A DNA stretch of 64,000 nt from Candidatus Heimdallarchaeota archaeon. GTDB taxonomy: Archaea; Asgardarchaeota; Heimdallarchaeia; Hodarchaeales; Hodarchaeaceae. The notes under the pieces are model-generated. The model did not search any database. It saw only the letters and a program-made list of their open reading frames with translations, and was not told the DNA's origin. The DNA lies in assembly GCA_011364965.1 (NCBI GenBank), contig RDOB01000004.1, positions 424,769 through 488,768 of the forward strand. The letters run 5' to 3'. A program made the position numbers and the translations under genes. How positions within the stretch are numbered: the first letter of the stretch is position 1; the number at the start of each line of letters is the position of its first letter. Positions 6,359 through 61,470 of this stretch are shown here, one piece after another.

Positions 6359-6510
6359 GAGGGAGTAAAGGCTCTTCAGCCCTAAAAAAGGGAGCATAAT
6401 CACTAAGAAATTTCCTTCAAAATAAACAGAACTCTCCTCTGGGGAGCAATCGACTTCTCAGATCATATATTATTTAATCAGGAATTCCGAAAAAGGACTG
6501 AGATTCGACT

Positions 6511-7260
6511 ATGGTAAAATTGAAAATGTGGGCCAATCTTTCTACTCCTGTTCAACAAATAGCGTTTTTAATGAGTAGTATATGGGCTATTGCTCCATTA
6601 ATTGCCCGAATTATCGCTATCATGATTACAGGTGCAACTGGATTGGTCTTAGTATCATATTATTTCTGGAACATTGCAGATTTAACACTGGGATTATTTT
6701 TCCGGGCATTCCGACTAAATACATTGGCTTATAGTTTTTTAAATTTTCATTCTGTTCCTTACTTGCAGTTTTTATTTGTAATTTTTGTGCAAATCTCCCG
6801 TTTAGGAGGTATCGTAGGGATCCTGCTGTTTATTGGAGCTGTGATCGAATTAGCACGAAGTAAACAGCGGAAAGAAAGCATAACGACCACAAATATCTAT
6901 AGCATAATCCGTCATCCTCAAAATGTAGCGTTTATCTTGATGGGATTAGGATACCTTTTTCTTCTAGAAGTACGCTTAGGAGATGTCTTCTCATGGTCAA
7001 TTTTTACCTTTATAGTCATTATGGAGGCCCGATGGGAGGAAAAACGGTTACTAAAGCAGTTTCCAACGGAATACACATTATATAAAACAAATACTCCATT
7101 TATGATCCCTTTAGTGCGGTTTCCTGCTTTCCAGAGGGTACACAACCTGTCGTACAAACAAGAATTAGGAATCGGGATACTAATCTATTTGATTCTTTCA
7201 ATTCCAACATTTACTTTTCTAGAATCGTTTTCTATGGGCACATTCGGACTTATCAGCTGA
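6511..7260 (+). CDS. Isoprenylcysteine carboxyl methyltransferase (ICMT/PEMT)-family membrane protein
   Basis: IYSIIRHPQ and EEKRLLKQFPTEYTLYK..TP motifs; multiple TM segments. Confidence 0.8.
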   Translation: MVKLKMWANLSTPVQQIAFLMSSIWAIAPLIARIIAIMITGATGLVLVSYYFWNIADLTLGLFFRAFRLNTLAYSFLNFHSVPYLQFLFVIFVQISRLGGIVGILLFIGAVIELARSKQRKESITTTNIYSIIRHPQNVAFILMGLGYLFLLEVRLGDVFSWSIFTFIVIMEARWEEKRLLKQFPTEYTLYKTNTPFMIPLVRFPAFQRVHNLSYKQELGIGILIYLILSIPTFTFLESFSMGTFGLIS

Positions 7261-7475
7261 AATTCTAAAATGCCAACTCTTATTAGGCTATTGGAGTCAT
7301 TATTTTAGCGTGATATTGAAGGGGGAAAAATCTCTTTTTATTCTTTGAATGCAGAGAAAATATAGGGAGAGGTTTATTGAATTTTAAACAGCTTTCATGA
7401 TTGTTTCTATTTCCCCTTTTAAAAGGTTATAAAGGGGGAATCCCTTAATTGACCACTTAAGGAAGCTAAGGCCAA

Positions 7476-7790
7476 ATGAGGAAACATGAAGAATTAGAAG
7501 AAAAATCAGCCCCATGTATCACGAGAAGTGTCGCTTTTTGTATCGATGGCTGTTTTAATTTTGTACCCTGTTATTTTTTCTGGAAAGATAATCTTAGACA
7601 CGGACAGAGCTTTGGAAAAAGACTCTTCGGACTCCGCGTTGTCAACTTCTCAGATGGAAAACCTATCACCCTCTCAACCTCCTGCATGAGGAACTGCTGC
7701 TTCTGCTGTCCTTGCTTAGCATTAAAAACCAAAAGTAAAAGACGCTTGGGGGATTATTTCGCAGGAACCATTGTTATAAAAGATACTTAA
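7476..7790 (+). CDS. RDD family protein, Cys-rich
   Basis: RSVAFCID, GQSFGKRLFGLRVV, RRLGDYFAGTIVI. Confidence 0.85.
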   Translation: MRKHEELEEKSAPCITRSVAFCIDGCFNFVPCYFFWKDNLRHGQSFGKRLFGLRVVNFSDGKPITLSTSCMRNCCFCCPCLALKTKSKRRLGDYFAGTIVIKDT

Positions 7791-7823
7791 CTTAAATCAC
7801 CCAATCGTGGCTGAATCTAGATT

Positions 7824-8416
7824 ATGAAACGACTAGCCATTCCAATTATCGAGTGTTTTTTGACGATTTTATTCTCACCTAGTAAGTTCAACAGTTTGTA
7901 CTGAACCATTCACTCTTCAGATTATCGGTTGTCATCATTATGCAGGATTAATTCCTCCCAATATCACGTGTACATATGATGCACGGGGATAATGACGAAA
8001 TTATTTTCGAGCTTCAATACAATGAGAAAGAAAGCATTAATATTACCAGCATAGAGATTTGGCAGACGCTACATTTCTATAATTCATATTGGAACGTAAC
8101 AACCAGAAAGACGATTGAAATCCCTGATGTTCCCTTGTCTCAAGGAGACCAGTATTATTTCCTAGCATCAGGGTTATTTATATTCATAGATCAAGGGAAG
8201 ACATTTACACAAGGACCTTTTTATGCGAAAATAATAGTGTCAGATGTTGACTATTGGATAACATTAGAGAGTTTTCCAGATACAATTCAAGAGGTTACTG
8301 AAGCAAACCTTCTGCCAAATACCCAGCTCTCAGAGAGAATCTCTTCAATCCGCATTTCCATATTACTTCCAAGCATTAGTTTCCTTGCGCTTCGGAAGAA
8401 AATCCATAGAAAATGA
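7824..8416 (+). pseudogene. Frameshifted secreted/surface protein; ORF 7976-8416 is the C-terminal part
   Basis: ATG at 7824 opens a signal-peptide-like MKRLAIPII; two frame changes are needed to reach the 146-aa ORF, which ends in a hydrophobic-plus-basic tail. Confidence 0.4.
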
Positions 8417-8532
8417 CCAAAAAGTAAACATATTAAGCTAGAGAGTACAAAGTTGCCACTAGCTTTAACCTTATAATCAAAGAGTCTAAATCAAAACACG
8501 CTTCTAAGACCAAATCCTTACAAGGTGATAGA

Positions 8533-9558
8533 ATGAGTAATGATGATCAGCAATCCTCACGGAAAACACTCCTTGAAAAGATTAGTGTGAGATATGGAGT
8601 ATCTAGCAATGATTTTCACTTTTTAGCGGAAGCTGACAACAATTTCATTTATGAATTCATCTTAGAAGGAAAAGAATATATTTTAAGGGCAGGAACACGC
8701 CATAAAGAGGAGTTAATACAGGCAGAAATAGAATGGATTCTCTTTCTTCACTCTCAGAACATTAAAGTATCAATTCCTGTTCACTCAAAAGTTAAAAAGT
8801 ACCTAGAGCAAGTAGAACACGAAGGAAAAATCTATCAGGTTGTGGCATTTGAAAAAGCTCTTGGAGATCGCGTTGAACTCCGAAATCCAGCTGAATGGAA
8901 CGAACAATTCTGGGAAACCATGGGGAAGGTTATGGCAAACCTCCATCAGGCCTCAGTTTTATATAATAGTCACGAACCTCAATACCGACGCCCCATGTAT
9001 TACGAGGATGAGTATGTGGTAGGTTTGGACGACTATTTAGATTCTGAAGAGGACAAAGCAATATTTCAAATTGCAAACCGTTTGTTAAAACACTTTGAAG
9101 AACTACCTACCAATCCCGATGCATTCGGGGTGATCCACACGGATCTTCACACTGATAACTTCCATAAACACGGAAACAATATGATTATATTTGACTGGGA
9201 CGATTCATACTATTTTTTCTTTATATATGACCTTGCTGCAGCATTTCACGAAACAATCTGGGATAATCCAGTAGAGAAACGACAAGAATTTGCTGATCGA
9301 TTTATACCTGTTTTTTGGAAAGGTTACTCATCAGTTTATCCTCTGGATCGTAAATGGTTAAATTATCTGTCGGAATTTTTCAAATGGCGAGAGTTCATCA
9401 TTTATGTCTGTGTAGTAAAGGATTTGAAAAAAGGGCCGCCTAATAAGCAAACGAAGTTATTTTTAAACAATGTGAAGACTGAATTTCGAGACTTGCTTGT
9501 GAACAATAAGCAAATGGTAGACATTCCTAGTGATTTGGCAAAATGGTTTCCACATTAA
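8533..9558 (+). CDS. APH/choline-kinase-family phosphotransferase (YerI/AmiN-like)
   Basis: IHTDLHTDNF and IFDWDD motifs. Confidence 0.85.
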   Translation: MSNDDQQSSRKTLLEKISVRYGVSSNDFHFLAEADNNFIYEFILEGKEYILRAGTRHKEELIQAEIEWILFLHSQNIKVSIPVHSKVKKYLEQVEHEGKIYQVVAFEKALGDRVELRNPAEWNEQFWETMGKVMANLHQASVLYNSHEPQYRRPMYYEDEYVVGLDDYLDSEEDKAIFQIANRLLKHFEELPTNPDAFGVIHTDLHTDNFHKHGNNMIIFDWDDSYYFFFIYDLAAAFHETIWDNPVEKRQEFADRFIPVFWKGYSSVYPLDRKWLNYLSEFFKWREFIIYVCVVKDLKKGPPNKQTKLFLNNVKTEFRDLLVNNKQMVDIPSDLAKWFPH

Positions 9559-9633
9559 AGGGAAGTATCCTACCCAGAGGAGGTATACGATATTTTGAAT
9601 AAATCCCAATAAAGTAGAAAAGGAGCTCAAACG

Positions 9634-11985: not shown

Positions 11986-12109
11986 AGAATCAACAACCTG
12001 ACCTACAACACTAGTAAGTAAACGTAAAGTCTTAGCAATTATACCTATTTAAGAAACAAGATACTGGTAAAAAAGCTAGTGTTAATTTTATATAATTTAC
12101 TAACTAATA

Positions 12110-16057: not shown

Positions 16058-16107
16058 CTATATCTATCCATATAATTCCATGAATGGAAAAAAGAACAGT
16101 AAAAAAA

Positions 16108-16230
16108 GCGTTAGATCAAAAGCCAATTTGTGTAAACATCCATAATGCGATTTCAATAGCTATCTAACAAGGGAACCTCTCAGTTTTCACACTTTTCTTG
16201 AAATAGGAGCCCTCCTTCGGTTTGGTACAT
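16108..16230 (+). repeat. Dispersed intergenic repeat, copy F
   Basis: ttagatcaaaagccaatttg...gctatctaacaaggga...ttttcacac...aataggagccctcc aligns with copies at 57753, 59017 and 39050. Confidence 0.7.
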
Positions 16231-18746: not shown

Positions 18747-18759
18747 CGTATAAGTATCC

Positions 18760-20455: not shown

Positions 20456-20570
20456 CTAACGAAGCACCCCTCGGATTCTAAACCAGATGTTGTGAACACC
20501 TATTCTGTGGCTTCTCTATCTAACGAGGGTTGCTACAAAAAAATCTCGGTTTCCCCACTATTCGGAAAGG
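20456..20570 (+). repeat. Dispersed intergenic repeat, copy G
   Basis: ctaacgaa...tgtgaacacctattctgtggcttctctatctaacgaggg...aaaaatctcggtttccc matches the family. Confidence 0.6.
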
Positions 20571-20718
20571 ATCTACCTTAATATTCACCTGTCGGTTAAT
20601 CTGAAAAATTTCAAGTTAAGAAAACAATTAATGATGCTAAAAAAAGAATATTTTAAAGAAAATAATGATAAATGATAGAAAAACCACAAATCCTGACATT
20701 TGGTTAACGTTCTGTCAG

Positions 20719-22140: not shown

Positions 22141-22215
22141 ACAGGGACTTATTTTAAATGTGGAATCAGCAATATGTGTCATAATTACCTCGTCAGATGT
22201 GAAACTAGAACTTAT
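22141..22215 (-). repeat. Degenerate inverted copy of the dispersed repeat
   Basis: Reverse complement reads ttcta...atctgacgagg...ttccacattt..aataagtccct. Confidence 0.4.
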
Positions 22216-23189: not shown

Positions 23190-24161
23190 GTGTATATTAT
23201 CATGACAGGCGATATCGTGAAATCAAGGAAAATTAAAAATCGAGTTGACGCACAACATCAATTGAAAAAGACTCTACAAACAATTAATCAAGAATACAAA
23301 TTGCAATTAGAAGCCCCGTTTGTAATTGTTTGGGGAGATTCGTTTCAAGGGGCAATTAAATCATTCAAATACACCTATGAAATATTAGAATCGATTTCTG
23401 AGCTTTTTCCGTATAAATTTCGATGTGGAATCGGAATCGGGGATATTTCAACCAGTTTTTCTACTAATGTATTAGAAATCGATGGTGAAGCGTTATTTAA
23501 TTCAAGATTTTCTTTAAAAGTGGCTACAGTATATAAGCTTGATTTCTGGATTCATTCTCCGAATATGGCATTCAATAAAACCTTGAACACGTTATTCTTA
23601 TTACTGTATACATTAACTAAACAATGGACGAATACTCAACGAGAAGTAATTGATCAACGAAAAAAGCAATTAACATATCAAGAGATCGGAGAACTACGAG
23701 GTGTTTCTAAGCAGGCGATTAATAATATTTTACGAAGCGCGAAGTGGCCTCAAATAGAATTGGCAAAACGATTACTTAGGTCAATAGATATCAATGATTT
23801 CAAAGATTCTAAGACAAATCTAGAAGAATTAATCTCTACCTCTTCCTTAGATTGGGACGAAACAAAAGAAATGAATGGTTTTGAATTTCATAATTGGTTA
23901 AGCGAAAAATTCGATATTCTCATGCTATCGACAACTCGTGATGGTGGATTAGATGGTATTCTTAGTACGGGTATTCCATGCCAAGTAAAGAAGGGGCATG
24001 TGGGACCGAAATCAGTTAGAGATTTTGCGTCTGTATTAAATGATTTAGAATCAAAAAAGGGGATTATTTTTGGAAAATCATTTTCAGAGGAGGCTAGAAA
24101 ATATTCTGTTTTTAAATTAAAGGATCAAGGTATAGAGATCAAGCTAATTGAATTTCAATAA
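23190..24161 (+). CDS. satD: SatD-family protein (cyclase-like domain + HTH) fused to a C-terminal Mrr-like endonuclease domain
   Basis: MTGDIVKSR, WGDSFQG, CGIGIG, DGEA; HTH TYQEIGELRGVSKQAIN; C-terminal DGGLDG..CQVKK..VRDF..FSEEA. Confidence 0.8.
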   Translation: MYIIMTGDIVKSRKIKNRVDAQHQLKKTLQTINQEYKLQLEAPFVIVWGDSFQGAIKSFKYTYEILESISELFPYKFRCGIGIGDISTSFSTNVLEIDGEALFNSRFSLKVATVYKLDFWIHSPNMAFNKTLNTLFLLLYTLTKQWTNTQREVIDQRKKQLTYQEIGELRGVSKQAINNILRSAKWPQIELAKRLLRSIDINDFKDSKTNLEELISTSSLDWDETKEMNGFEFHNWLSEKFDILMLSTTRDGGLDGILSTGIPCQVKKGHVGPKSVRDFASVLNDLESKKGIIFGKSFSEEARKYSVFKLKDQGIEIKLIEFQ

Positions 24162-27018: not shown

Positions 27019-27088
27019 ATTTTACCCCTGAAGTTCACAAACTGCGTCAAGCTTTATAAACTCTTAGAGAGAAAAAGAAAATCCATTA

Positions 27089-27180
27089 TACTGCTTCTAT
27101 AAATATGAACCATTTTTTTCTATTTTCAACAGCTCTTTCTTAATACGTTTCCCTAGCAAACAGACATTAGATCAAGCAAG
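27089..27180 (+). repeat. Partial copies of the dispersed repeat (H)
   Basis: tactgcttctataaatat and cagacattagatcaagc match two conserved blocks. Confidence 0.45.
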
Positions 27181-35730: not shown

Positions 35731-36169
35731 GTTAATCTTGTAATCTCTTTGTTAAGAGAGTTTGAAAGCTTCAATCACTCAACACTCCCACCTCTTATAG
35801 CTCTCTCTAATTTAAACCAATTTTGAAATATATTCAATTAACTAATCCCATTTTTAATTTGCTGTATATATATCATACCTCAGAGTAAGAGCTCAAAACA
35901 AACTCCATTATACGAATATGGAATATCATCAGATGATGGATTCCATATGAATACTAGATTGTGAAAGTTTGATGCAAACTGCTCTTCTAGCGTGGGTTTT
36001 TGGCTCATAAAGGTATTCATTGTACTCTTTAGTTTCAATATGATCAAACCAGCTAAGATAATTAGAAAACGAATTTTTTGAATAACTATCTACTAAATGG
36101 ACGATGAGTACAGGATGAACCCCTAATTCGATAGCTACTTGAAAATCACCTTGAGTAGGAAGGGGGTCA

Positions 36170-36275
36170 TAGGTATCAGACCAAGGATTAATTTTGTAAT
36201 ACAAAGAGTAAACTGGAACACCGCTTCTATCGCTATCTTCCGAGGGAGTTTTTTGAAAAAACTCAATTTCCACAC
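36170..36275 (+). repeat. Dispersed intergenic repeat, copy A
   Basis: tatcagaccaagg...aacaccgcttctatcgctatcttccgagggagttttttgaaaaaactcaatttccac; perfect palindrome at 36246-36264. Confidence 0.8.
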
Positions 36276-36320
36276 AATTCGATTGAAAAATCACAAGATT
36301 CAAAACAAAAGAAAAATAGA

Positions 36321-36835: not shown

Positions 36836-37363
36836 TTAAAAAAGCTTCCTACCCCTAAGCGCTTTTTGAGTAATATCCTCAAAAATTTTCATTAATTTGG
36901 GTCTTTCCATATGTCCTATAATATAATAGTCTACCTTAAGTTCATTTGCTAGCTTAATGGCATTAAATTGATTACAATCATCCTTTTTTCGCGTTTGAAC
37001 TCCAACGATCGCTATAGGGTAGGATAAATCGCCAGAAATCTCGCGAAACCTCTGAATCCATGTGGAAATCGCGTCAAAATCGGATTGATTGGCACATTCA
37101 TATATAACAAGACACCCAGACGAATTAAGGATGGTTTGATACCAAACTTTTTCGTTAGAGATCGTTTCTGGACTAATAGCGGGGATCATGATCTTGATTT
37201 TCATCTTTTCTAAATAATCATACTGTCTGGACTGAAAAACAGGCGGAAGAATGCCTAAAGGGGTATCACCACTAACTCCTCCAATCGCTCTACTGATATA
37301 CAGATTCAGCTTAGGGTTGCTTCCAAGAAGACAGATCTTCAATACGAATTTTTTCTTTGACAA
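36836..37363 (-). CDS. Rab/Ras-like small GTPase-fold protein with degenerate G motifs
   Basis: FVLKICLLG, GCLVIYE, FDAISTWI, PIAIVG, IFEDITQK; G1, G3 and G4 consensus lost. Confidence 0.7.
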   Translation of the reverse strand: MSKKKFVLKICLLGSNPKLNLYISRAIGGVSGDTPLGILPPVFQSRQYDYLEKMKIKIMIPAISPETISNEKVWYQTILNSSGCLVIYECANQSDFDAISTWIQRFREISGDLSYPIAIVGVQTRKKDDCNQFNAIKLANELKVDYYIIGHMERPKLMKIFEDITQKALRGRKLF

Positions 37364-38951: not shown

Positions 38952-39049
38952 AAAAATAGGCGAATTTCAAATTGCTATTTGGAAAATCAAAATGTAAGGT
39001 TCATTCAATATCCTCTGTAATTCCGTAAAAAAAAGTACTGAAGAATCCT

Positions 39050-39185
39050 CAACAAACGTATAGACATCAGATCCAATTTGTATGAACATCTTTCCTGCTG
39101 CTTTTATTGCTCTCTATCGAGGGAAGTTGGTAAAAAACTCACTTTCCACATGCGTCTGCAAATAGTAGTTATTCTGTGAACAGGT
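39050..39185 (+). repeat. Dispersed intergenic repeat, copy B
   Basis: caacaaacgtatagacatcagatccaatttgtatgaacatctttcctgctgcttttattgc...cgagggaag...aaactcactttccaca...aatagtag. Confidence 0.8.
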
Positions 39186-43006: not shown

Positions 43007-43131
43007 ACGATCACTTGGAAGCTAAAGGTTTAATAAATTTTGGTACAGTTCTTGAATGAAAAGAATTCTCCAAAAAAAAAGAAACAGGGGATTAAAGCGT
43101 TCAAACATCAAACCAAGGACCAAACATTCAA

Positions 43132-43524
43132 CTAGACCCCATCTGAATCCGGCGGTCGAGGGACATTCTCAAGTTCCCGAATTAACCTCCTCCTTCGCCC
43201 TGCCACCGAGCTGTGGTACGCACAATAGAAAAAAAGGCCCGCATTTATCAAACAGCCAAACCCAATGAGAACAAATCCAAAAAAGAGCAAGGGTAACTTG
43301 GGATACTCATATGAAAAATCAATAGCTCCTACGCCAATCATAGCTATAGCAACACCGCTCAGAAAGAATAAAAAACTAGGAATCGTTTGCGCCCAGCACT
43401 TGTACGAACAGTAGTAACGTTCATCATATGAAATCTTTTTCCAGAATGTTTGGCGAAATTTACGGTCACAGTAACTGCAGACGAGGAGTTCTTTCTTTTG
43501 AGTAGGTGTTTCCAGATTACACAC
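43132..43524 (-). CDS. TRASH/MYM-like zinc-finger membrane protein
   Basis: CSYC...YCSYKC followed by two TM segments. Confidence 0.55.
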   Translation of the reverse strand: MCNLETPTQKKELLVCSYCDRKFRQTFWKKISYDERYYCSYKCWAQTIPSFLFFLSGVAIAMIGVGAIDFSYEYPKLPLLFFGFVLIGFGCLINAGLFFYCAYHSSVAGRRRRLIRELENVPRPPDSDGV

Positions 43525-43616: not shown

Positions 43617-44620
43617 TGATCAGTAAGGATTATAGAACATTATATATTTATTTCCATATTTTTCTCATCTCTATTTTATATTTTAGATAGTAATTTAAAC
43701 TCCATGCAAAGTTTTAAGTGATTTAGTTGAATATCTCAATTGCAAATTTTTGCGTTATTATAGAATCTTCCGAATACTCACTAAATTAGTATATTAAGTT
43801 CATTTCGAAGAACTACACAGAATGTATATTTTATAAGGAATGAAATTCCATAAGACTTCTTGACTTGTTAGTAACGTTTCAGGTGGGATAGATTTGCTAA
43901 AAAATGAAGAAGGGAATCACCAAGGTTTCTATTTAATTCAATTCAAGAAAGCACTGTATTGGATGGTAATTGTCTTAAGCGGGTATCTCTTGTATTACCT
44001 GAGTTGGGCGTTCTGGATCGCAATTAATGCTATCATTAGCTCTGGATTTCAATTTGAAGCTATTATCATAAGTCTAGCTTGGATTCCAGCGTTGGCCTTG
44101 GGATGGGCTATAGTCTCAGCTGGGATGACCTACCTCTTTCCAACGACCTTTCGGTTAATTCCGACCCTAGCTTGGATGTTGGGATGGATTGGAGGTGTAG
44201 GGGTGTTATACAAAAAAAAAACCACACCTGATGCTAAGCTTACATTAGGAACACTGCTATTCTTTCTTGGTGCTATTGTAGTGCTTGTCTTTGGAAAAGA
44301 GATCTTTAGCTTCTATACTTCGACTCTGATGCTTTTACATCTGGATCCTCTTATTTATCTTGGGACAGTGGATAGGATAGGGTTTTACTGGCTTCTACCT
44401 CTCTGGCTTCTGAGCTGGAGTTTTTTCTGGTTGAAGCGGATTCCCCAAATCAGATTAGAGGATAAAATCCTCTATAACTCTACGCTACTTTGGGTGGTAT
44501 GGTTTATTATTCTCAACCTCTTTCTGTGGATGTATGCCCCGATTACTATCTAGAATTCAAAACAAAATAATTATTTGATGTTGTTGTATGACATTATTTT
44601 TTCAGCTTGTTTTTTACGTA
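43617..44620 (+). repeat. About 1-kb duplicated unit (gene plus about 270 bp upstream), copy 1; copy 2 at about 57994-59000
   Basis: Upstream DNA aligns (ctattttatattttaga; aatcttcc.aatactca.taaatt; gacttcttga.tt.ttagtaacgttt.aggtgggatagatttgct). Confidence 0.8.
43894..44553 (+). CDS. Hypothetical membrane protein, paralog of 58267-58935
   Basis: Near-identical N-terminus MLKNEE..QGFYLIQFKKALYW and YWLLPLWLLSWSFFWLK. Confidence 0.7.
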   Translation: MLKNEEGNHQGFYLIQFKKALYWMVIVLSGYLLYYLSWAFWIAINAIISSGFQFEAIIISLAWIPALALGWAIVSAGMTYLFPTTFRLIPTLAWMLGWIGGVGVLYKKKTTPDAKLTLGTLLFFLGAIVVLVFGKEIFSFYTSTLMLLHLDPLIYLGTVDRIGFYWLLPLWLLSWSFFWLKRIPQIRLEDKILYNSTLLWVVWFIILNLFLWMYAPITI

Positions 44621-46508: not shown

Positions 46509-49325
46509 ATGAATCTAAAACCTGCAAAAAACGTATTTATCGTTCCTCATACTCATTGGGATCGTGAGTGGTATCTTCCATTCCAACAATTTCGGTACAA
46601 ATTAGTACAATTAGTGGATATTCTATTAACGATCTTGGATAGCGAAGAATCCTTTAGATTTACCTTTGATGGTCAAACTAGCATCCTAGAAGATTACTTG
46701 GAAATCCGACCTGAAAATGAATCCCGATTATTAGGATATATTAGAGAGAAAAAAATCGCTGTAGGACCATGGTATGTCCTTCCTGATGTTTGGTTAGCGA
46801 ATCAAGAAAGTTTAATCCGTAACTTGGAGTACAGTCAGGATTTAGCTAATAGATATGGTATAAAACAAATGAAAATTGGCTATTTACCTGATACTTTTGG
46901 CTTTACTAGAGGAATTCCTCAAATAATTGGAGATTTAACCGATTTCAGAGCAATAGTTGTATGGCGAGGGGTTCCACCAGAAATAAAGACTGTTCCCTTT
47001 TTATGGCGGAGTAGTCCAGCTTCCGAGAAACCTGTATTCACAAATTATCTCCCATTTGGATATGGTAATGCTGCATTACTTCCAGAGAGTACAGAAGAAT
47101 TAGAAACGGAATTAAAATCTTTGGTAAGTCAATTAGAACCTTTCTCACCAATACCAATCTATCTCTTACTACATGGGACGGATCATCAAGTTCCCTCACT
47201 TAAGCTAAGTAAGACACTCCCTCAAATAAAAGTACCAAACATGGCCTTTCAAATATCACTGCTTGAAGATTATATAGAATCGCTTCTTAAGTTGATTAAA
47301 GAAGTAGACTTCCCTCCCCCAGAATATAGTGGGGAATTACGATCTGCAGCTCGGGCGCATATTTTAGTAGATACCTATTCAGCGAGAATGTGGATTAAAT
47401 TATGGAATCAGAAGGTTGAAGACCTTTTAACTCATTATGCCGAACCTTTATGTTGCTATAGTTGGCTTTACTTCCATAAAGAGTACCCTTCCTCATTTTT
47501 AACAGAGGCATGGAAACACCATTTGCAAAATCAAGCACATGATTCAATTTGTGGGTGTTCTATTGATCAGACTCATGAAGAAATGAAAGCTCGCTATTCT
47601 TGGACTCAAACCATTGCAGAAACCATAATAGAAGATGAGCTACAATCCCTGGAGGCACAAGCACAGACAACAGATCACGACTCGATTATTGTATATAATC
47701 CTACAAATTGCTCTGATCTTCCACTCCTTGTAGAATTTACTATTTCTGGGGAAAATAAATATCATAGTGTTATCTCTTCAAAAGGAGAGGTCTATAAGTT
47801 ACAACCTTTTCAAGATTCAAGGGAAAAACTTTGGGAAATGACTGTTGGATCGTTAAAATTACGGGCATTGATGCGACTGCTTCCTGGAAGAAAAATAATG
47901 ACCTTTTATATCAATGAGGTCTCCATTTTCGATAATAGCACCAATCCGAAGATATGTGAAGCTCAGTTGATTGTTGGAGACAAACCACTTGGAGAGTTTG
48001 ATCTAGATCAAATGAAGAAGAGCATCAATTCCCGAATCCAAAGTGGCAAATACACGCATTTTCACATGATCGTTACAAAAGAGATGAAGATGAATTATAT
48101 TGCTCTTATCCCGCTCCAAGCCTGGAGCTTTTCGCAATTAAAACTTATGGAAGAGGGTAATATTCCTGACAATAGACCCAGAACACAAATTTCTAAGGAT
48201 TGGGTCATACATCCCTCCTATGAAGTAAGGTTTCAGAAGGATGGATCATTTAATTTATTTGAAAAAGAATTAAACCTTCAATTCAGAAACTTACACTTCT
48301 TTGAGGATTGGGGCGATCGGGGAGATGAATATACCTTTGGGAGAATCGGCCCCGAATCTGTCAAAATATTCGATATTAAAAGGGAAGTGACACTCAAAGG
48401 ACCACTTGTGTATGAGATTCAACAATCTATGACTCTCAAGCTCTTTCAAGAGGTTGATGATGCACGGGAAAAACGAATCGGATCAGTTAAAATTCCGGTG
48501 ACGACTAAATTTAAATTTTATAGTAATATCAATCGAATAGATATCCAAACAACATTGATCAATACAGCCAAAGATCATCGCCTTAGAATTTGCTTTCTTT
48601 TGCCTTTTAAGACCCAGTACACACATACTTCAACTCATTTTGGAATTATTAAACGTTTTGCAGGCCCGATTGGAGATGATAGTTATTTAGAAAGGCCCTC
48701 AGGGATTCAATCCCAAAAACGATTTATTAGGGTTAATGATCCGTCAAGTGAAGCTGCGTTCACTTTAATGAATTGGGGCATTCCAGAAGTAGAATTACGG
48801 GATGAATCGGTGTTAGCGATGACATTAATTCGCTCCATCGGTTGGTTGGCCCAATCAAACTTTCCTGAAAGACCTGAATTAGCTGGACCCGCTATAGCTA
48901 CCCCGAATGCCCAAGAATTAAATAGAGAATATAGATTTTTATATAGTATTCGAACTCATACCAAAAAAGAACCACTTTTCAAAACTGCAGACCATTCTGA
49001 AGCTTTTTCATTATTACCTAAAGCACTATATTTAGCAAAGAAAATTTTACCTGCTAAATTAGTTGAACCGATGTTTAAAATCTCTGATGCTAGAATAAGG
49101 GTCTCTTCGATGCGAATACGGAACAAGAATATCCTTTTAACGTTATTTAATCTTGATGAAGCTGAAGTTACGGTTACAATCGAATATGAAAAGAAGATTA
49201 CACGCCTAAGTCAAATCCTTATAGATAGCTCATTAAAAGGAGCCCCCCGTAATGGAGAGCTGATATCGAACTTAACGTTTCACCCTCATGAGATTAAACT
49301 ACTCTCACTTGGATTGAAAGAATAA
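46509..49325 (+). CDS. GH38 alpha-mannosidase/mannosylglycerate-hydrolase-like enzyme
   Basis: HTHWDREWY, FDGQ, PDTFG nucleophile, HDSICGCSID, DHRLR. Confidence 0.92.
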   Translation: MNLKPAKNVFIVPHTHWDREWYLPFQQFRYKLVQLVDILLTILDSEESFRFTFDGQTSILEDYLEIRPENESRLLGYIREKKIAVGPWYVLPDVWLANQESLIRNLEYSQDLANRYGIKQMKIGYLPDTFGFTRGIPQIIGDLTDFRAIVVWRGVPPEIKTVPFLWRSSPASEKPVFTNYLPFGYGNAALLPESTEELETELKSLVSQLEPFSPIPIYLLLHGTDHQVPSLKLSKTLPQIKVPNMAFQISLLEDYIESLLKLIKEVDFPPPEYSGELRSAARAHILVDTYSARMWIKLWNQKVEDLLTHYAEPLCCYSWLYFHKEYPSSFLTEAWKHHLQNQAHDSICGCSIDQTHEEMKARYSWTQTIAETIIEDELQSLEAQAQTTDHDSIIVYNPTNCSDLPLLVEFTISGENKYHSVISSKGEVYKLQPFQDSREKLWEMTVGSLKLRALMRLLPGRKIMTFYINEVSIFDNSTNPKICEAQLIVGDKPLGEFDLDQMKKSINSRIQSGKYTHFHMIVTKEMKMNYIALIPLQAWSFSQLKLMEEGNIPDNRPRTQISKDWVIHPSYEVRFQKDGSFNLFEKELNLQFRNLHFFEDWGDRGDEYTFGRIGPESVKIFDIKREVTLKGPLVYEIQQSMTLKLFQEVDDAREKRIGSVKIPVTTKFKFYSNINRIDIQTTLINTAKDHRLRICFLLPFKTQYTHTSTHFGIIKRFAGPIGDDSYLERPSGIQSQKRFIRVNDPSSEAAFTLMNWGIPEVELRDESVLAMTLIRSIGWLAQSNFPERPELAGPAIATPNAQELNREYRFLYSIRTHTKKEPLFKTADHSEAFSLLPKALYLAKKILPAKLVEPMFKISDARIRVSSMRIRNKNILLTLFNLDEAEVTVTIEYEKKITRLSQILIDSSLKGAPRNGELISNLTFHPHEIKLLSLGLKE

Positions 49326-51335: not shown

Positions 51336-52277
51336 TTATTTGTTTAGTTGTAACAAAGAGTAGCTTATAGCTGGGTGACTTTGAATATTCGGATGAAGAA
51401 GTCCAGTTTCATTTAGTAATCTTGGATCAAAGGTTTTGTTATTATAAAAGCGCTTTAAACACTCTATTTCAGATTCAGTTATTTTTAATTGGATGGATCT
51501 TATGAATTCAATTGCTAAATTTTTCCAAGTATCAAACATTTTATCGTTCTGTTGATTCTTTCGGGGAAGTACTTGGCGTAAATGTTCATCAAGTCTGATA
51601 TTCGATAAATGAGAGTCAGGATCTACTTTTGGTAAGTAGAAACGACTATCTGTAAGGTTTTTCAGTATCAAACACTTCCTAAAGACGTGTTGGTTAAATT
51701 TGGCTGTGCTAATTGCTGCTACATCAAACAAATCTCTAGCAGATTTTCGACCTAAGAGGGTTCCACACTTTGAACTAAAAAGTTCCTCTCTTTGTGGTAA
51801 TTGAATTTCTGACTCGTCTCCAGTCTTAGGATGGCGAAAAACACAGTTTATATCTTCAGTTAAGAATGGAATTCTATTCATATATCCTATTTCGACTTTG
51901 AAACTAGAACTTCGGACGGATCCGTATTTCACATCAAAACGAGTGAGAGGATAACTGGCATTTATCTTAATATCAGTTTTATTATATCCTAATCGCACCA
52001 GGACTTCTTTGACAATAGAATCGATTTGATCTCGTTCTATTCCCCAATCATTTGTACTATCCATTATTCTGAAATCAAAATCAAGATCTACTGATAAGCG
52101 TCTATATTGGCCTAATTCGATTAAATTAAGAGCTGTACCCCCTACAAGACGAAGGTATTTCTGAATATAAGGAATATCATACAATCGGTCAAGTACATCG
52201 GAAATTCGATAGACTTTTTCAACAGTTCCAAAATTATACTCCTTTTCGATCGTTACTGACGATAATCCATTTGTCAA
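51336..52277 (-). CDS. abiEii: AbiEii-family nucleotidyltransferase toxin (type IV TA)
   Basis: VEKV, LVGGTALN, RLSVDLDF, KVEI, K...RKSARDLFD. Confidence 0.9.
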   Translation of the reverse strand: MTNGLSSVTIEKEYNFGTVEKVYRISDVLDRLYDIPYIQKYLRLVGGTALNLIELGQYRRLSVDLDFDFRIMDSTNDWGIERDQIDSIVKEVLVRLGYNKTDIKINASYPLTRFDVKYGSVRSSSFKVEIGYMNRIPFLTEDINCVFRHPKTGDESEIQLPQREELFSSKCGTLLGRKSARDLFDVAAISTAKFNQHVFRKCLILKNLTDSRFYLPKVDPDSHLSNIRLDEHLRQVLPRKNQQNDKMFDTWKNLAIEFIRSIQLKITESEIECLKRFYNNKTFDPRLLNETGLLHPNIQSHPAISYSLLQLNK

Positions 52278-52356
52278 GAATGCATCCTTTCCTAATTCAT
52301 AATCTATTCAATTACTATCCAGTTATCGAGTTTGTAAAATCATTAAATATTTCTTT

Positions 52357-53196
52357 TTAGACTCCTCGTAAGTTATTTTCAATAAAATCTTTAGATACAA
52401 GTAGCTTCCAGCGTGAAATAGAAGTAGTCTTTTCTTGTTGAAAAGATCTATCAATGTAAAGCCAACTATTCGATAACCGTTCTTCTAGTGCTCTGAAAAC
52501 CTTGTCAGGAAGATGCTCATAATAAACTGATTTGTACGTTGGATGATTCCGAAGGATTTCTAATACAAATCCTACTTTTCTAATCAGAATCTGTTTTGGT
52601 TCTAACAACCACAAAACTTCTAGTAATTTGTCAAAATCTAATCCACTTAAGTTTTCTAGGCTTTTCAGGGCTTCCTCCCACCCTCCTGCATACCTCACCC
52701 GATCAAGACTGTCGATAAAAGTTCGTTCTTTGGATGTCACTTTCACTTGACTTTTTTCTGTTGCTTTCCTAAATACAATTCCTACACTTGGATGTTTTAA
52801 AGCTACTGACCGAAAAACAGCATTTCCTACCGTGAATGGCCTAAAAAAAGATTCACTACCCAAATATACATCATTAAATTCGTTATATGCTACACCATAA
52901 TATTCTAAAGCTGTATGATAACAGATTACCTCTTTTCCATTATGAAATTTACTTGCTACTAAAAATTTGTTTAAATTCTGATCTAGATTGTCTTGAAATG
53001 GCAATAATGCATGATAAAGTCCTCTGTAAATTCTTAATAGTTTTTTCTGTTCAACTAATGGCCCCACGTGAGCCTGATGAATGACTTTCCTAGATAAGGA
53101 CGGGTTATTCAGTCGATAAAATTCTACAATCTCATTAAAAGTGATTACTTGTTCTTTTAGGGCTTTTTCATACAATAAACTACGTTCTGATTTCAT
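52357..53196 (-). CDS. abiEi: AbiEi-family antitoxin (likely start MKSERS)
   Basis: RIYRGLY, ICYHTALEYYG, VTSKERTFIDSL, RKVGFVLE. Confidence 0.85.
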   Translation of the reverse strand: MKSERSLLYEKALKEQVITFNEIVEFYRLNNPSLSRKVIHQAHVGPLVEQKKLLRIYRGLYHALLPFQDNLDQNLNKFLVASKFHNGKEVICYHTALEYYGVAYNEFNDVYLGSESFFRPFTVGNAVFRSVALKHPSVGIVFRKATEKSQVKVTSKERTFIDSLDRVRYAGGWEEALKSLENLSGLDFDKLLEVLWLLEPKQILIRKVGFVLEILRNHPTYKSVYYEHLPDKVFRALEERLSNSWLYIDRSFQQEKTTSISRWKLLVSKDFIENNLRGV

Positions 53197-53222
53197 TTGC
53201 AATATCATCCTAATAGGATTTC

Positions 53223-53358
53223 TTGCATTGTTCTTATACTTATCCACCCTTATAAGTAGGATAACTCGAGTAGAATGCAAAAATTCCTAGTTCAAGTAAT
53301 TTGATTTTTTCTCATATTTATCCACCGTTTTAGGTATGATTATTCAAGTAAAATGCAA
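53223..53358. promoter_or_regulatory. Candidate AbiEi operator repeats
   Basis: Two 44-bp imperfect direct repeats (53237-53280, 53315-53358; ttatccacc...gta.aatgcaa) and an inverted pair TTGCATT..TTATCC / GGATAA..AATGCAA. Confidence 0.6.
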
Positions 53359-56126: not shown

Positions 56127-56176
56127 CTTAGTCAGTCTATTAATTTTCAGGTCCTTTTTTATAATTACAGACTATG

Positions 56177-56290
56177 ACTAAATTTGTCAGACAACTGCTA
56201 AAAAGGTTAGCTGTTCTGAACAGGATGAGTCACGCATCCGCTATCCGGAAAGACCCCTTTCTTCAAAGAAAGAGGGTCTCGAGGGATTAC
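56177..56290 (-). ncRNA. Probable TnpB omegaRNA/reRNA scaffold overlapping the tnpB 3' end (boundaries approximate)
   Basis: Expected position for TnpB loci; hairpins GGATG-CGTGACT-CATCC and CTGTTC-A-GAACAG. Confidence 0.45.
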
Positions 56291-57472
56291 TTTTGTCGAA
56301 GCTAGGTGGTGCTGATAGTTCTGGATCAGGTTTCGAGCTGCATTCAGGTCAGCGTTAAGGCGAAGTAAGCAGACCTTGCACTGATACAATCCCCGGCTTT
56401 GGCGATTCGCTTTCCGTACTACCCCACACTGACTGCATCGCTGAGACGTATACGCCTCAGGAAGCTGCACGACGTGTATCCCCGCTTGAGCGGCTTTATA
56501 CTCTAGCATCTGCAGGAAGTTCAGGAAGGGGATCTGAACGAAGTTCTGGTTGCTCCGTTTTCCGAGCTCACACCCCTGTTTCCAATGAGGGTTATACCCG
56601 ACCACAAGGGTGTCAATCTGCTGCGCTTGGCAATGCTTAATGAGCTTTCGAGACGATTGGTGCAAGATATTTGTTATTTGGTTACTTCGACGGCGGAACA
56701 ACCGTAACAGCCGATGGGTCGGTTCTGATTGCTTCTGGTGCGCTGCGTGAGCGCGGTACTTTGCGAGTTGTTTGTTAAACCATTGATTAATTGTTTTGAT
56801 AACCCCGCCTTTGATGAGAAACCCATCTGACGTAGCTACGAGGTTATTCACGCCCAGATCTACCCCCAGGAGTCGAGGAGGAGGAAAAGCTGAGGCTAGT
56901 GTTGCAGGGGTGATTGGGACTTCATAAATCAGCTCCAACACATACCGGTCGTAGAACGGTAGGAAACGGGCACTGAGGTGGGTTTGGGGCGTAAAGGGGA
57001 ACTTTCCCAGCGGAATAGCAGGGAATCCCCGCTTAAGCATGTTTTGAGGGAAGAGGAGCTGTGAACCCCGGACGCGTACCCGGGGGTGGGGGAAGGTGAG
57101 GTGGTACCGCCCATTCTTTGGCTTATACCCCGGAAAGCGGGGCTTAGCCTGGAACTGCGTAGGATCGATCCGCCAGGCCTTCTTCGCCTGAAAATAGCTC
57201 CGCCATGTCTGTTCGACCTGGCGTAAGACTTGCTGGGGAATGTAGCTATCGGTGAGCTCTTTGAGCGCCAAATAGGCCGGGTGGGTTTTGATCTGTCGAT
57301 ACAGGGCGATATACTGCAACCACTGTTTTGTAGCAAAATACTCCTGACGCACGAGGTAAAGGGCCATATTATACAGGTTTTTCGCCCGAATGCAGAGGTT
57401 TTCGAAGTAAGGCGTAGGTGTTAGCTGGATTCGATAGGCCCGCTGCTGGTGCGGGGTGCGTCTTCCTCTCAT
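56207..57472 (-). CDS. tnpB: RNA-guided endonuclease TnpB
   Basis: KNLYN, GVDLGVNNL (RuvC I), VGYN..WKQ and EAYTSQRC, CxxC zinc finger, NADLNAARN (RuvC III). Confidence 0.95.
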   Translation of the reverse strand: MRGRRTPHQQRAYRIQLTPTPYFENLCIRAKNLYNMALYLVRQEYFATKQWLQYIALYRQIKTHPAYLALKELTDSYIPQQVLRQVEQTWRSYFQAKKAWRIDPTQFQAKPRFPGYKPKNGRYHLTFPHPRVRVRGSQLLFPQNMLKRGFPAIPLGKFPFTPQTHLSARFLPFYDRYVLELIYEVPITPATLASAFPPPRLLGVDLGVNNLVATSDGFLIKGGVIKTINQWFNKQLAKYRAHAAHQKQSEPTHRLLRLFRRRSNQITNILHQSSRKLIKHCQAQQIDTLVVGYNPHWKQGCELGKRSNQNFVQIPFLNFLQMLEYKAAQAGIHVVQLPEAYTSQRCSQCGVVRKANRQSRGLYQCKVCLLRLNADLNAARNLIQNYQHHLASTKVIPRDPLSLKKGVFPDSGCVTHPVQNS

Positions 57473-57752: not shown

Positions 57753-57910
57753 CAAACTTGTAAATGAATAATATAATTTGTCCAACGAAGATTACTGCTT
57801 CTATTGCTATCAGTCGAGGGAGTTTCTTCAAGAAATCAATTTCCACCCTATTGTCCAATAGTAGCCCTCCTGCAGTTAGGAACAGGAATACCTAGAAGTA
57901 CGAAAGGGGC
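57753..57910 (+). repeat. Dispersed intergenic repeat, copy C
   Basis: actgcttctattgctatcagtcgagggagtttcttcaagaaatcaatttccaccctattgtccaatagtagccctcctgcagt. Confidence 0.85.
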
Positions 57911-58266: not shown

Positions 58267-58935
58267 TTGCTGAAAAATGAAGAAGATAATCGCCAAGGTT
58301 TCTATTTAATTCAATTCAAGAAAGCACTGTATTGGATTGTAATTGTCTTAAGCGGGTATTTATTGTACTATCTCAGCTTGGGACTCTGGACAGTAATTCA
58401 TTATATTGCTAATTCTGGATTTCAACTTGAGTCTATTATTACAAGTCTAGTTTGGTTCCCTGCAGTAATCTTTGGGTGGGTAATGGTCTCAACTGTGATG
58501 GTATATTTCTCCCCTATTTACTTTCCAGTAATTCCGACCTTAGTATGGGAAGTAGGATGGCTAGGAGGTTTAGGGGCAATTTATTACAAAAAGAAAAACC
58601 CTCCTGATGCAAAATTGGCCGTTGGGACTCTTCTATTATTCCTAAGCGCCATTTTTTTCCTGAACTTTGGGAAAGAGATCTTTAGTTTCTATACTTCATT
58701 CCTGATGACTTGGGACTTGGATCCGATTTTTTATCCTGCGATCTTCGATTATTTAGGGTACTACTGGCTTCTGCCTCTCTGGCTTCTGAGCTGGAGCTTT
58801 TTCTGGCTGAAAAAAATTACCCAATTTCGCTCAGAGGATAAATCTCTCTTTCTTCTCTGGATTGCATGGCTTATTCTTCTTCAGTTCTTTCTGTGGATGT
58901 ATACTATACCGTATTTAAACCCAAGTAGCTGGTAG
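58267..58935 (+). CDS. Hypothetical membrane protein, paralog of 43894-44553
   Basis: High similarity to the 43894 copy; about 6 TM segments. Confidence 0.7.
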   Translation: MLKNEEDNRQGFYLIQFKKALYWIVIVLSGYLLYYLSLGLWTVIHYIANSGFQLESIITSLVWFPAVIFGWVMVSTVMVYFSPIYFPVIPTLVWEVGWLGGLGAIYYKKKNPPDAKLAVGTLLLFLSAIFFLNFGKEIFSFYTSFLMTWDLDPIFYPAIFDYLGYYWLLPLWLLSWSFFWLKKITQFRSEDKSLFLLWIAWLILLQFFLWMYTIPYLNPSSW

Positions 58936-59016
58936 AGTTCAACCTCATACGATTATTGATGGTTTTGTGCCATAGCACACTTAAAGTATTTTTACATGAA
59001 AGAAAACCATAATATC

Positions 59017-59136
59017 CATCAGATCACGCGTTAATCTCTTTGAATATCTGTCCTTCTGCTTCTATCGTTATCTCCCAAGGGATTTTCTTCAAGAAATCAA
59101 TTTCCACCCTCTTTGCTGAAGAGTAGCCCTCCTGCT
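59017..59136 (+). repeat. Dispersed intergenic repeat, copy D
   Basis: catcagatcacgcg...ctgcttctatcgttatctcccaagggattttcttcaagaaatcaatttccaccctctttgctgaagagtagccctcctgc. Confidence 0.85.
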
Positions 59137-59369
59137 ATTTAAAAAATTTAGGGAGTTTTACTTTAATTTGAATATTAATAATCAAAAAGATTAAGAATTC
59201 AGCTAAAAAAAAATACCAGCGTTCTATTCTGGTTAGCAATAGACTCCTTTCTTCTACCATTTCGGTTAATTGGCTGGAATGAACTACTATCATCAAGAAA
59301 ATAAAGTCGACCTAGCTAAAGAAGAGATTTAGGAAATCGTGAGATCAAGCATTATACGAGGATCAATAA

Positions 59370-59705
59370 ATGAAGGAAAAAAGTGATTTACAACTCATTT
59401 TTGATTACCAACAAAAATTTGACAGAAAACTTGGCTGGAACACCTATGAAAACCTCACTAATGAACAAGAAATAATCAATTATTTACAGCTCACTGTCTT
59501 AAAATTTACGGAAGAAGTCGGAGAAATTGCCCAAGAAGTAAGAAAAATATTGAGGGACAAGAAATCATTTGATCCTGAAGCCTTTAAACACGAATTAATA
59601 GATATATTCGTTTACTTAATTCAAGCATCAATAGCACTGAAAATGGATCTGGCAGAGGAATACTACAAAAAAATGGAAATAAATAAACAAAGATTTCTAA
59701 GGTGA
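59370..59705 (+). CDS. MazG-like all-alpha NTP pyrophosphohydrolase
   Basis: EEVGEIAQEVRK and HELIDIFVYL. Confidence 0.85.
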   Translation: MKEKSDLQLIFDYQQKFDRKLGWNTYENLTNEQEIINYLQLTVLKFTEEVGEIAQEVRKILRDKKSFDPEAFKHELIDIFVYLIQASIALKMDLAEEYYKKMEINKQRFLR

Positions 59706-60120
59706 TTACAGTTGAGTATGGCAATTTTTCCTTATTAAGCTTACTAAGCTTAGATTCTACTTCATATAAGTGTATCCCTTTTACAAGGAACCATAGTTTT
59801 TTTCGAGAATTTATCTGTCGTTAAAAAATGATTAGAGTGAAAGAATTGAGTTTTTTTAAATTTAAGGAATGACCATCGCTATCGAATTCAAAGCTAAAGT
59901 CTATACCACGATTTTTCTCCAGTATCAAGATATTTTGTTAAAAAATCAAAGCTTAGTTGGTTTGGTATTGGTGAGTTATTTGCTCCCGATCTTTCCACTT
60001 CCTCCCCCCTAACAAAATATGCTGGAGAGATTAAAGAACCACAATAAGAGATGGTTTATGTGAAACTGAGCAAAATGATTTTACTTTTACTTTTTTTAAC
60101 TTTCTATCTAGTTATTTCAA

Positions 60121-60212
60121 CAAACTTGTAAAATACCATAAATACTTCCCAACGAATGTACAGACCTCAGATCAAGCGCCAATTCGCATGAACAGATCTC
60201 CTGCAGCTTTTA
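60121..60212 (+). repeat. Dispersed repeat, 5'-half copy
   Basis: caaacttgtaaa..ccaacgaatgtacagacctcagatcaagcgccaattcgcatgaacagatctcctgcagcttt aligns with B and with the region upstream of C. Confidence 0.75.
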
Positions 60213-60241
60213 AAAGAAAAACTTTAGCATTGAGAAAATAC

Positions 60242-61003
60242 TTAGGAATCAGAGAAACCAAGGGGATGAGCCTCGCAATAATGGATTAACTTCCCTGTAC
60301 GCCTTGTAACATAAGATTGGATTGATACTTCTCCGTCCTCTACCCAAGTCGGGGATAAATCCCATATCCAGTGGGACTGATTCATACAACTACGAGACGC
60401 CAGGTGAGCAAGCTCAGCGAGACCCAGCTGAAGTAAAAAAGTTTTGAGCTGGAGAACCTCTTTATAACGAAGATTCACTTGTAGATGTTTCGTCTCAGAC
60501 TCAATGGTCAGGGGCAACAGGAAAGAAGAAGAGGACGTACGAACCTTTTCTAGGAATTTAGCGTCCACAAAAAAGCCAGTGGCAGAATATAAGGGGAAGA
60601 GGATTTCCAACCCATCTTTTCGGTGGATCATCCACTTCTTAGTGAGAAGAAGTTGGTTTCTGTGTTTAGGAAAAAAAAAGCGCCGTATGAAAAAGCCAAC
60701 CACAAGCTCAGAAAACAAGAACGCAATAAGTAAGGAAGTGGTGAACTCAGCAATGAGCTCCAGAATAAAGTAGCAGCTCATCAAGGCAACAGATAGCAGT
60801 ATTATTTCGGACACAAAATAGGATTTCACCCAGGTAGGAAATTCAACTTGAGACACAAATTCCCCGTGGGTGAATTTAGAATTTAATTTGGCAGAGGAAA
60901 CGAAATAGGTTCGGTAAAGAGCACTAAGAGATTCTCCACGAAAAAGGAAGAAATACCAGATAATGAAAAAGATAATGGGAAATATAATAACTTCAGAAAC
61001 CAC
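60242..61003 (-). CDS. Hypothetical membrane protein
   Basis: 253-aa ORF with 3 TM segments; GGTGGA RBS-like motif upstream. Confidence 0.55.
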   Translation of the reverse strand: MVSEVIIFPIIFFIIWYFFLFRGESLSALYRTYFVSSAKLNSKFTHGEFVSQVEFPTWVKSYFVSEIILLSVALMSCYFILELIAEFTTSLLIAFLFSELVVGFFIRRFFFPKHRNQLLLTKKWMIHRKDGLEILFPLYSATGFFVDAKFLEKVRTSSSSFLLPLTIESETKHLQVNLRYKEVLQLKTFLLQLGLAELAHLASRSCMNQSHWIWDLSPTWVEDGEVSIQSYVTRRTGKLIHYCEAHPLGFSDS

Positions 61004-61149
61004 TCAAATCCACCGACTCGGAAACTAGACAGCAAGTTGAATTAATAATATTCCTGTAGCAGTTAGTATTAAATGTTTACACCCCAAGCCCAAACCACGA
61101 TTGCTAGCTTACGAAAAAGAAATGATAGAAATCAAACAAAAATTAGCCT

Positions 61150-61470
61150 CAACCACCGTACAGGCATCAGACAAAGAGCCCACTCAACTAAATTACTACC
61201 TCTCTGAAACACTGCTTCTATAACTACCTGACGAAAGATATTTTTCAAAAACTCAATTTCCACATTTTTTTCAAAGAGTAGCCCTCCTGCAGTGAGGGAC
61301 AGAAAGCGAATAAGAAAACTAGAACGAAAGTTATCACATTTTCAAGTTAATTCTTAAATCTCCTTCCCCAATGCTCTCAACTAACGAATTGAGATTAGAT
61401 CCAGCGTCAACTTAACTAAATATCTATCCTGAACACCTTGGCATCCTCTGTTATCATCGAAAATATGATA
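61150..61470 (+). repeat. Dispersed repeat copy E (61150-61330) followed by a tandem 5'-half copy (61381-61470)
   Basis: gtacaggcatcagac...actgcttctataactacctgacga...tcaatttccac...agagtagccctcctgcagt; then ctaacgaa..ttagatccagcgtcaa..tatctatcctgaacacc. Confidence 0.8.

Follow-up and report, generated by a model that had tools for sequence, protein, structure and literature searches.

An array of orphan copies of the 23S rRNA gene end separates accessory gene blocks in a Hodarchaeales genome

Repeat copies, orientation and extent

The window analysed here, a whole stretch of 64,000 nucleotides (C12:424,769-488,768, where C12 is contig RDOB01000004.1), belongs to a Candidatus Heimdallarchaeota archaeon of the Hodarchaeales (genome G000; assembly of 2.97 Mb, 87% complete), and carries a family of short repeats lying between blocks of accessory genes. 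A repeat finder, direct reading and MAFFT alignment detected nine main copies in the window, all in a single orientation and with nhmmer E-values of 1e-31 to 1e-7. The matches cover 16107-16229, 20459-20579, 36169-36281, 39047-39184, 57778-57884, 59013-59138, 60147-60212, 61147-61301 and 61376-61449; the slightly wider unit limits are given in Table 1. These nine are real copies of one family, as first proposed from the letters of the window alone, and the alignment also reproduced the consensus blocks given in that original prediction.

An iterated nhmmer profile run against the full assembly identified 26 copies. Twenty-two are on C12 between positions 440,875 and 525,024, all matching the profile on the plus strand (chance probability ~5e-7), and the other four, on an 11-kb contig (C8), all match on the minus strand. 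No convincing copy was found elsewhere in the 2.97-Mb assembly, the best other nhmmer match having an E-value of 0.004. Co-orientation, described earlier as almost complete, is thus complete on both contigs, and the genome-wide scan places the family on one strand and at one locus of C12, plus C8. Spacing between copies ranges from 0.2 to 18.7 kb, with a median of 2.5 kb. The array itself lies where it had been predicted, with its right limit drawn too narrowly: it extends 36 kb rightward past the window to the end of C12 and then onto C8, and the ends of both contigs are close to units. In total it spans ~100 kb (3% of the assembly) and comprises at least 26 units and at least 25 gene blocks.

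As also proposed earlier, the copies are intergenic and the neighbouring genes face in either direction. Thirty open reading frames (ORFs) are on the plus strand and 39 on the minus strand, with 0-13 per interval; whole intervals face either way, and the genes inside an interval are mostly aligned with one another. Weaker pieces had been suggested at 6371-6465 and 8473-8507, with an inverted one at 22141, and these scored no better than a reversed-sequence control. The remaining weak piece, at 27.1 kb, is borderline; together with spots at 43.1 and 47.7 kb, all three oriented like the family, it could be a decayed relic (Table 1). No relics were detected in the window to the left of 16.1 kb.

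Identity of the repeat unit

By sequence comparison, the repeat unit is an orphaned 3′ end of a 23S rRNA gene, copied together with the 3′ trailer. Searched across the assembly, large-subunit rRNA (model LSU_rRNA_archaea) gives a single match, on the minus strand at C12:515,019-515,329 (222 bits, model positions 2721-2973 of 2987), and this 310-nt fragment of the 23S 3′ end runs unbroken into a repeat copy (c514907). The fragment has the sarcin-ricin motif and aligns over its full length with the continuous 23S of a sister genome, G005. For the same locus (L007, C12:513519-516829) cmscan returned nothing although the assembly-wide search had scored 222 bits; the alignment settled the identity, and the discrepancy between tools is relevant when hunting for orphan rRNA fragments.

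Read along the minus strand, a unit is made up of the last ~28-39 nt of the 23S and the whole trailer of ~125-150 nt, which includes a conserved box and a short terminal hairpin. The tail CTGTyCCTnACyGCAGGAGGGCTA is common to the units, and the trailer box is GATCTGATGTCTGTACGyTGTT. In the sister genome G001, AACAGCGTACAGACATCAGATC lies in the 23S 5′ leader, ~110 nt before the gene starts. Because this is the exact reverse complement of the trailer box, the box is identified as the 3′ strand of the pre-23S processing stem. Judged from these alignments, a unit covers exactly the part of the predicted pre-rRNA that lies 3′ of its start point. This rRNA origin, which the original prediction missed, is the key to the structure of the array.

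Most units start 28-39 nt before the mature 23S 3′ end (placed from the Rfam model with an accuracy of a few nt), and they share an end point at the terminal hairpin. A longer form, starting ~310 nt before the 23S end, was found once in G000 and nine times in G001, G002, G003, G008, G012 and G013. All of these longer copies start within a few nt of one 23S position, which lies between ...CTATTGG and ACGTGTTGGA in the native sequence. Units are 110-155 nt in length, and some copies reach 440 nt. Partial copies also occur in G000, five with only the distal trailer and one restricted to the tail and proximal trailer.

Units that have two internal hairpins and units that lack them coexist, interspersed, in G000 and in other species. 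Pairing in these hairpins is kept in 80.6% of alignment cells, compared to 39-53% when the partners are slid, and there are two compensatory pairs, each split 5:5. This modest signal fits descent from functional trailers. The units might instead persist because they are useful in themselves, for instance as RNAs pairing with the 23S leader, as terminators or as insulators, in which case the array would not be mainly a record of insertions. Every full unit does contain the stem's 3′ strand and a terminal hairpin flanked by T-rich sequence, and the hairpin pairing exceeds its controls. We consider such a function improbable, however, because the copies decay along a clear gradient and many are halved or truncated, covariation is limited to two pairs that could be inherited subfamily markers, and gene blocks face both ways relative to the units. 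The suggestion of a free-standing structured non-coding RNA family did not hold: the units have no Rfam match, and their sequence is that of the 23S tail and trailer. Scans of the window against Rfam (E up to 1) and for tRNAs were both empty, and no 5S or 16S gene was found in the assembly.

Table 1. Repeat units, possible relics and selected cargo of the array. Positions are those of the window unless another contig or locus is named; for units, strand (-) is the direction in which the unit reads as 23S tail plus trailer.
Feature	Position	Strand	Description
Unit 1	16100-16230	-	23S tail and trailer, degenerate; 67% identity to consensus; nhmmer E 2.5e-26; most distal detectable copy
Unit 2	20459-20579	-	Degenerate; 57% identity to consensus; nhmmer E 4.6e-18
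Unit 3	36169-36282	-	Degenerate, without 23S tail; nhmmer E 3.3e-19, profile positions 15-118
Unit 4	39031-39184	-	Near full length; 70% identity to consensus; nhmmer E 1.4e-30
Unit 5	57778-57885	-	23S tail and proximal trailer, without distal trailer; adjoins TnpB gene; nhmmer E 4.4e-25, profile positions 43-149
Unit 6	59013-59139	-	nhmmer E 6.2e-30
Unit 7	60131-60212	-	Half unit: distal trailer with processing-stem box, without tail; nhmmer E 4.8e-13, profile positions 2-67
Unit 8	61142-61303	-	Full length, tail CTGTCCCTCACTGCAGGAGGGCTA through trailer; nhmmer E 1.1e-31
Unit 9	61373-61449	-	Distal trailer only (half unit), separated from unit 8 by 75 nt; nhmmer E 9.9e-08, profile positions 3-66
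Possible decayed relic, borderline	27076-27178	-	Two short pieces; nhmmer E 0.07-0.8 (best reversed-control E 0.45-1.1)
Possible decayed relic, borderline	43095-43177	-	nhmmer E 0.04-0.22
Possible decayed relic, borderline	47661-47713	-	nhmmer E 0.005 (genus profile), 1.5 (species profile)
Cassettes between units	16231-61141	.	1-13 ORFs per cassette, mostly co-oriented within a cassette (Pfam scans, cassette map)
Ras-like GTPase genes	36836-37363; C12 window-equivalent 65515, 76395, 81364, 82821, 83807, 89399; C8 10246-10926		
~220-aa paralogs	43894-44553; 58267-58935; L002 7860-8537		
AbiEii/AbiEi pair	51336-53280	-	Defence/toxin-type
Fic-domain protein	L001 11316-11750	-	Defence/toxin-type
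SatD-like protein	23190-24161	+	Defence/toxin-type; C-terminal weak Mrr-type nuclease match (Mrr_cat E 1.9e-4)
TnpB (IS605 OrfB / Cas12f-like TNB) gene	56207-57472	-	PF07282 4.3e-21, PF01385 1.3e-16

Related arrays across the genus

The stem box is present in 16 of 22 genomes of the genus, compared to 0-1 matches per genome for a backwards control, and its copies are co-oriented on every contig that has several (for example, 14 on G008:C8). Diverged homologous arrays occur on G021:C93, G002:C9 and G013:C70 and on a metagenome contig (L028), and independent assemblies of 15 sister genomes show the same layout. One of the genomes, G010, proved to be a scaffold with gaps rather than closed. A metagenome scan at the level of the genus recovered three related contigs, none of them from this species.

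In G005, the array lies directly behind an intact 23S gene in the order native 23S, cassette, orphan unit. A second copy of the native 23S tail and trailer (2061-2255) follows 3.75 kb downstream with 89-94% identity, and this orphan copy starts at the position used by the short units. Three ORFs lie between the two copies, one encoding a Schlafen/AlbA_2 protein and two encoding unknown proteins.

The 16 kb to the left of the G000 array have gene-length matches at 64-76% in sister genomes. A 19-kb segment of the array matches the 21 sister genomes over short, domain-level stretches only, and the array cargo is species-specific. We considered the gene at 85-2421 as a conserved distal border and rejected it, as its ortholog in G003 sits between two units.

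Short, repeated and intergenic sequence could in principle represent a miniature inverted-repeat transposable element (MITE) or a similar old non-autonomous mobile element, as had been suggested, or an IS relic, and an assembly artefact is conceivable for a metagenome-assembled draft in which C12 and C8 both end near units. All of these are extremely improbable here. The units have no terminal inverted repeats or target duplications, are confined to one locus and one orientation, and are continuous with 23S rRNA; their divergence is too great for collapsed or chimeric repeats, and their layout recurs in the 15 sister assemblies and on L028.

The position of the stem box upstream of the rRNA genes differs among genomes. 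In G008 (L017, G008:C9 1-6000) the 16S is directly upstream of the 23S and the box is upstream of the 16S, unlike G001 and G016, in which it is just upstream of the 23S. A full 23S on another G001 contig (G001:C57, L008) was rejected as a reference for being too unlike the fragments of the genus; it is very unlike the other 23S pieces and may be mis-binned.

Cargo between the units

The genes between the units in the window include those encoding an acyltransferase, an ADH, PadR, EamA, SatD/Mrr, an aldo-keto reductase, an FG-GAP surface protein, a Ras-like GTPase, ABC/FtsX, MFS and GH38 proteins, an AbiE toxin-antitoxin pair and a GNAT protein. Pfam searches of the ~80 array ORFs of C12 and C8 indicate mixed accessory functions with many unknowns. 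Over the array as a whole, the cargo includes Fic, a chloramphenicol-phosphotransferase-like kinase, a subtilase, a GH38 mannosidase, PadR regulators, and ABC/FtsX and other transporters.

Asgard genomes are known for many small GTPase genes. At least eight Ras-family small GTPase genes with 22-55% mutual identity are inside the array, and this family, typical of Asgard archaea, may be expanding there; these diverged genes bear on how such families have grown. There are also three paralogs of an unknown protein of ~220 aa with no Pfam match, each in a separate cassette and with 62-67% amino acid identity, and ~220 nt of upstream DNA are conserved between two of them. Since paralogous cargo genes within the array are only 22-67% identical, recent tandem duplication is ruled out as the source of the array.

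The TnpB gene is in a GC-rich patch (GC 0.468 vs 0.35 for the genome) and adjoins the truncated unit 5. It looks like a later, secondary insertion, and is the sole mobility gene of the array, not its recombinase.

Search for a recombinase

Proximity to a tyrosine or serine recombinase had been raised as a test of the cassette idea, and none was found in or beside the ~100-kb array. Among the ~80 array ORFs searched with Pfam there is no integrase, resolvase or homing endonuclease, and no match to PF00589; nor does any of the sister contigs examined, including the 23S-proximal cassette of G005, encode a recombinase. The 87% complete assembly has two PF00589 tyrosine recombinases, on C9 and C1, both unlinked to the array, one being Xer-like and the other located beside tRNA genes. 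No serine recombinase was found in the assembly, and LAGLIDADG matches occur only within ORFs of >1200 aa, which are presumably inteins. The C1 recombinase (C1:548-1051) is at the contig edge, ~5.5 kb from tRNA-Leu and tRNA-Val genes at C1:6582-7446, and the combination looks like an ordinary tRNA-associated integrative element.

Decay gradient and unit relationships

Identity of the units to the consensus is 57-70% at 16-39 kb of the window, 73-78% at 57-71 kb (window numbering), and 78-90% near the end of C12, which is presumably the side closest to the 23S gene. Across all units, sequence distance is correlated with array rank (Mantel r 0.24, p 0.01). All of the 20 G000 units analysed fall in one clade, and the nearest neighbour of each is another G000 unit, with a mean identity of 61% within G000 vs 47% to units of other species. 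Thus, the units derive from the trailer of their own lineage and not from other sampled species, which rules out their import with cassettes from those species.

Origin of the array

The array probably grew by serial insertion, with gene modules that lack an integrase entering one after another at the 23S 3′ end. Every insertion would have added a tail and trailer, leaving the rRNA gene with an intact end and processing stem. Older copies would be displaced outward from the 23S gene and then decay. We infer both this accretion history and the mode of joining, which would be either by an enzyme acting in trans or by host homologous recombination. The array may be unrelated to rRNA function beyond the need for each insertion to preserve it.

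Several results weigh against serial insertion. The native 23S gene of G000 is absent from the assembly, and its adjacency to the array is deduced from G005 only. No recombinase was identified for the array, and a metagenome scan specific to this species gave 0 matches. Among the preserved units, distance is not correlated with array rank (Mantel r 0.14, p 0.12); the closest pairs of units are also not neighbours in the array. Without an order signal among these units, and with the hairpin types interspersed, one-by-one displacement of a single evolving native copy fits only partly. Moreover, the units are 9-50% diverged, so the insertion events would be old and the site only putatively active today.

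Two accounts of how modules were joined receive about equal weight. A site-specific, trans-acting enzyme is favoured by start points that recur across species and by the shared end point, whereas the absence of a recombinase, the unit length and the species-specific sequence favour Campbell-type homologous recombination.

In its fullest form, the first account is an integron-like system in which a dedicated recombinase is encoded elsewhere, the site is inside the unit, and circular cassettes that each carry one unit are inserted and excised, as with attC. The 310-nt orphan fragments of six genomes start within a few nt of one 23S position, the short units begin 28-39 nt before the 3′ end, and the same terminal hairpin closes every unit. 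The interspersed hairpin types look as if units travel with cassettes, and the two compensatory pairs suggest selection on the units. A system of this kind is nonetheless unlikely. No recombinase is encoded in or beside the G000 array or on the sister contigs examined, the assembly holds just the Xer-like and tRNA-side tyrosine recombinases and zero serine recombinases, and the units have no inverted-repeat core. The earlier proposal of a gene-cassette system survives in outline, as co-oriented boundaries that separate operon-like blocks without gene-length sister counterparts in one accessory region. The units are not attC- or pdif-like sites, however: they neither fold end to end into a hairpin nor contain an 11-6-11 core, and no recombinase is encoded close to them.

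RNAalifold applied to a 20-copy alignment found no consensus pairing, and trimmed good copies gave 3-6 scattered pairs on either strand. Initial matches to RYYYAAC/GTTRRRY at unit ends were not borne out, and a long-range GAGGG/CCCTC pairing was rejected, as it is not conserved in sister species. A dif-like site with a CGTTGG spacer was also rejected. Its inverted arms are no better than chance, and CGTTGG is the loop side of the terminal hairpin, which differs between species. At ~599-629 kb of contig C11 there is a separate set of co-oriented intergenic sites, with CGTTGGT followed by ATTACAyAyGAACCTC or TATACGACAT; their similarity to the 23S units is weak, with no demonstrable link.

Capture could alternatively have been free of any recombinase. 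Crossover between units would release circles of cargo with one unit, and these would return by Campbell-type integration, either at the native 23S end or at any unit, with the unit serving only as portable homology. This would account for the failure to find a recombinase, for units of 110-155 nt, far above what a core site needs, and for the fact that G000 units are all of their own sequence type, as expected if exchange requires within-species homology; co-orientation would be automatic. However, units that are 9-50% diverged with indels are a poor substrate, and the start points shared by different species would require common descent of the fragments plus gene conversion. We regard this account as doubtful, too.

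It is possible, though somewhat less likely than not, that serial insertion reflects a gene-capture platform of Hodarchaeales type operating genus-wide. The 23S end and trailer would then be a reusable attachment site at which a putative recombinase encoded elsewhere, or homologous recombination alone, built ~100-kb species-specific arrays that include many small GTPase genes.

No known organisms are closer to eukaryotes than the Asgard archaea, and explanations for the size of their accessory gene content are poor. If the 23S end is an active capture site, it would be a route of gene gain overlooked by standard integron, island and transposon finders, because there is no integrase, no attC and no inverted repeat to detect. 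Orphan rRNA tails can also mislead rRNA annotation and break assemblies.

Comparison with known systems

Our literature search found no description of such 23S-tail arrays, or of integration at the 23S 3′ end. The nearest parallels are accretion of islands at tRNA and tmRNA genes, and integrons. In tRNA/tmRNA accretion, as here, co-oriented direct repeats are displaced 3′ ends of a structural RNA downstream of its gene (here seen in G005), with accessory DNA between them, and the outer copies are older and more decayed. What differs here is the target, which is the 23S end with its processing trailer, and the scale of at least 26 units over ~100 kb. The blocks are 1-6 kb (up to 19 kb), none with an integrase, and the repeated segment of 110-155 nt (some 440 nt) reaches the foot of the processing stem.

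Integrons, sedentary chromosomal ones among them, and archaeal clusters of attC sites lacking integrases (CALINs) share with this array a long series of small gene cassettes, co-oriented genome-specific repeats and diverse species-specific cargo, and CALINs also have no integrase beside them. Archaeal integrons are defined by canonical attC sites and IntI (Ghaly et al., 2022, PMC9668308). The G000 units are instead rRNA-derived and have no attC R′′-L′′/L′-R′ hairpin, no IntI was found in the assembly, and the cassettes are often multi-gene and face either way. The best reading is that the array works like an integron or tRNA-gene accretion and belongs to neither family, because an integrase carried by the islands, an attC fold, IntI and a uniform gene orientation are all missing.

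Within the Asgard archaea, HeimM2 of Candidatus Heimdallarchaeum is one element of 8 kb that sits between the sole 16S gene and tRNA-Arg; it carries a homing-endonuclease-like gene, and no repeated rRNA tails or array were described for it (Wu et al., 2022, PMC8813620). It is comparable as a mobile element located exactly at an rRNA gene end in a related lineage, and differs in its endonuclease, none of that kind having been found in the G000 array.

The hypervariable region HVR2 of the bacterial SAR11 group (Pelagibacter) is a positional analogue. A recent account gives tRNA genes as its conserved anchors and, in the text examined, reports no orphan rRNA-tail repeats (bioRxiv 10.64898/2026.04.03.716430, citing Wilhelm et al., 2007). 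HVR2 resembles the Hodarchaeales array in being a hypervariable region that keeps its position throughout a genus, next to unlinked rRNA genes; its cargo differs between species and shows a gradient of age.

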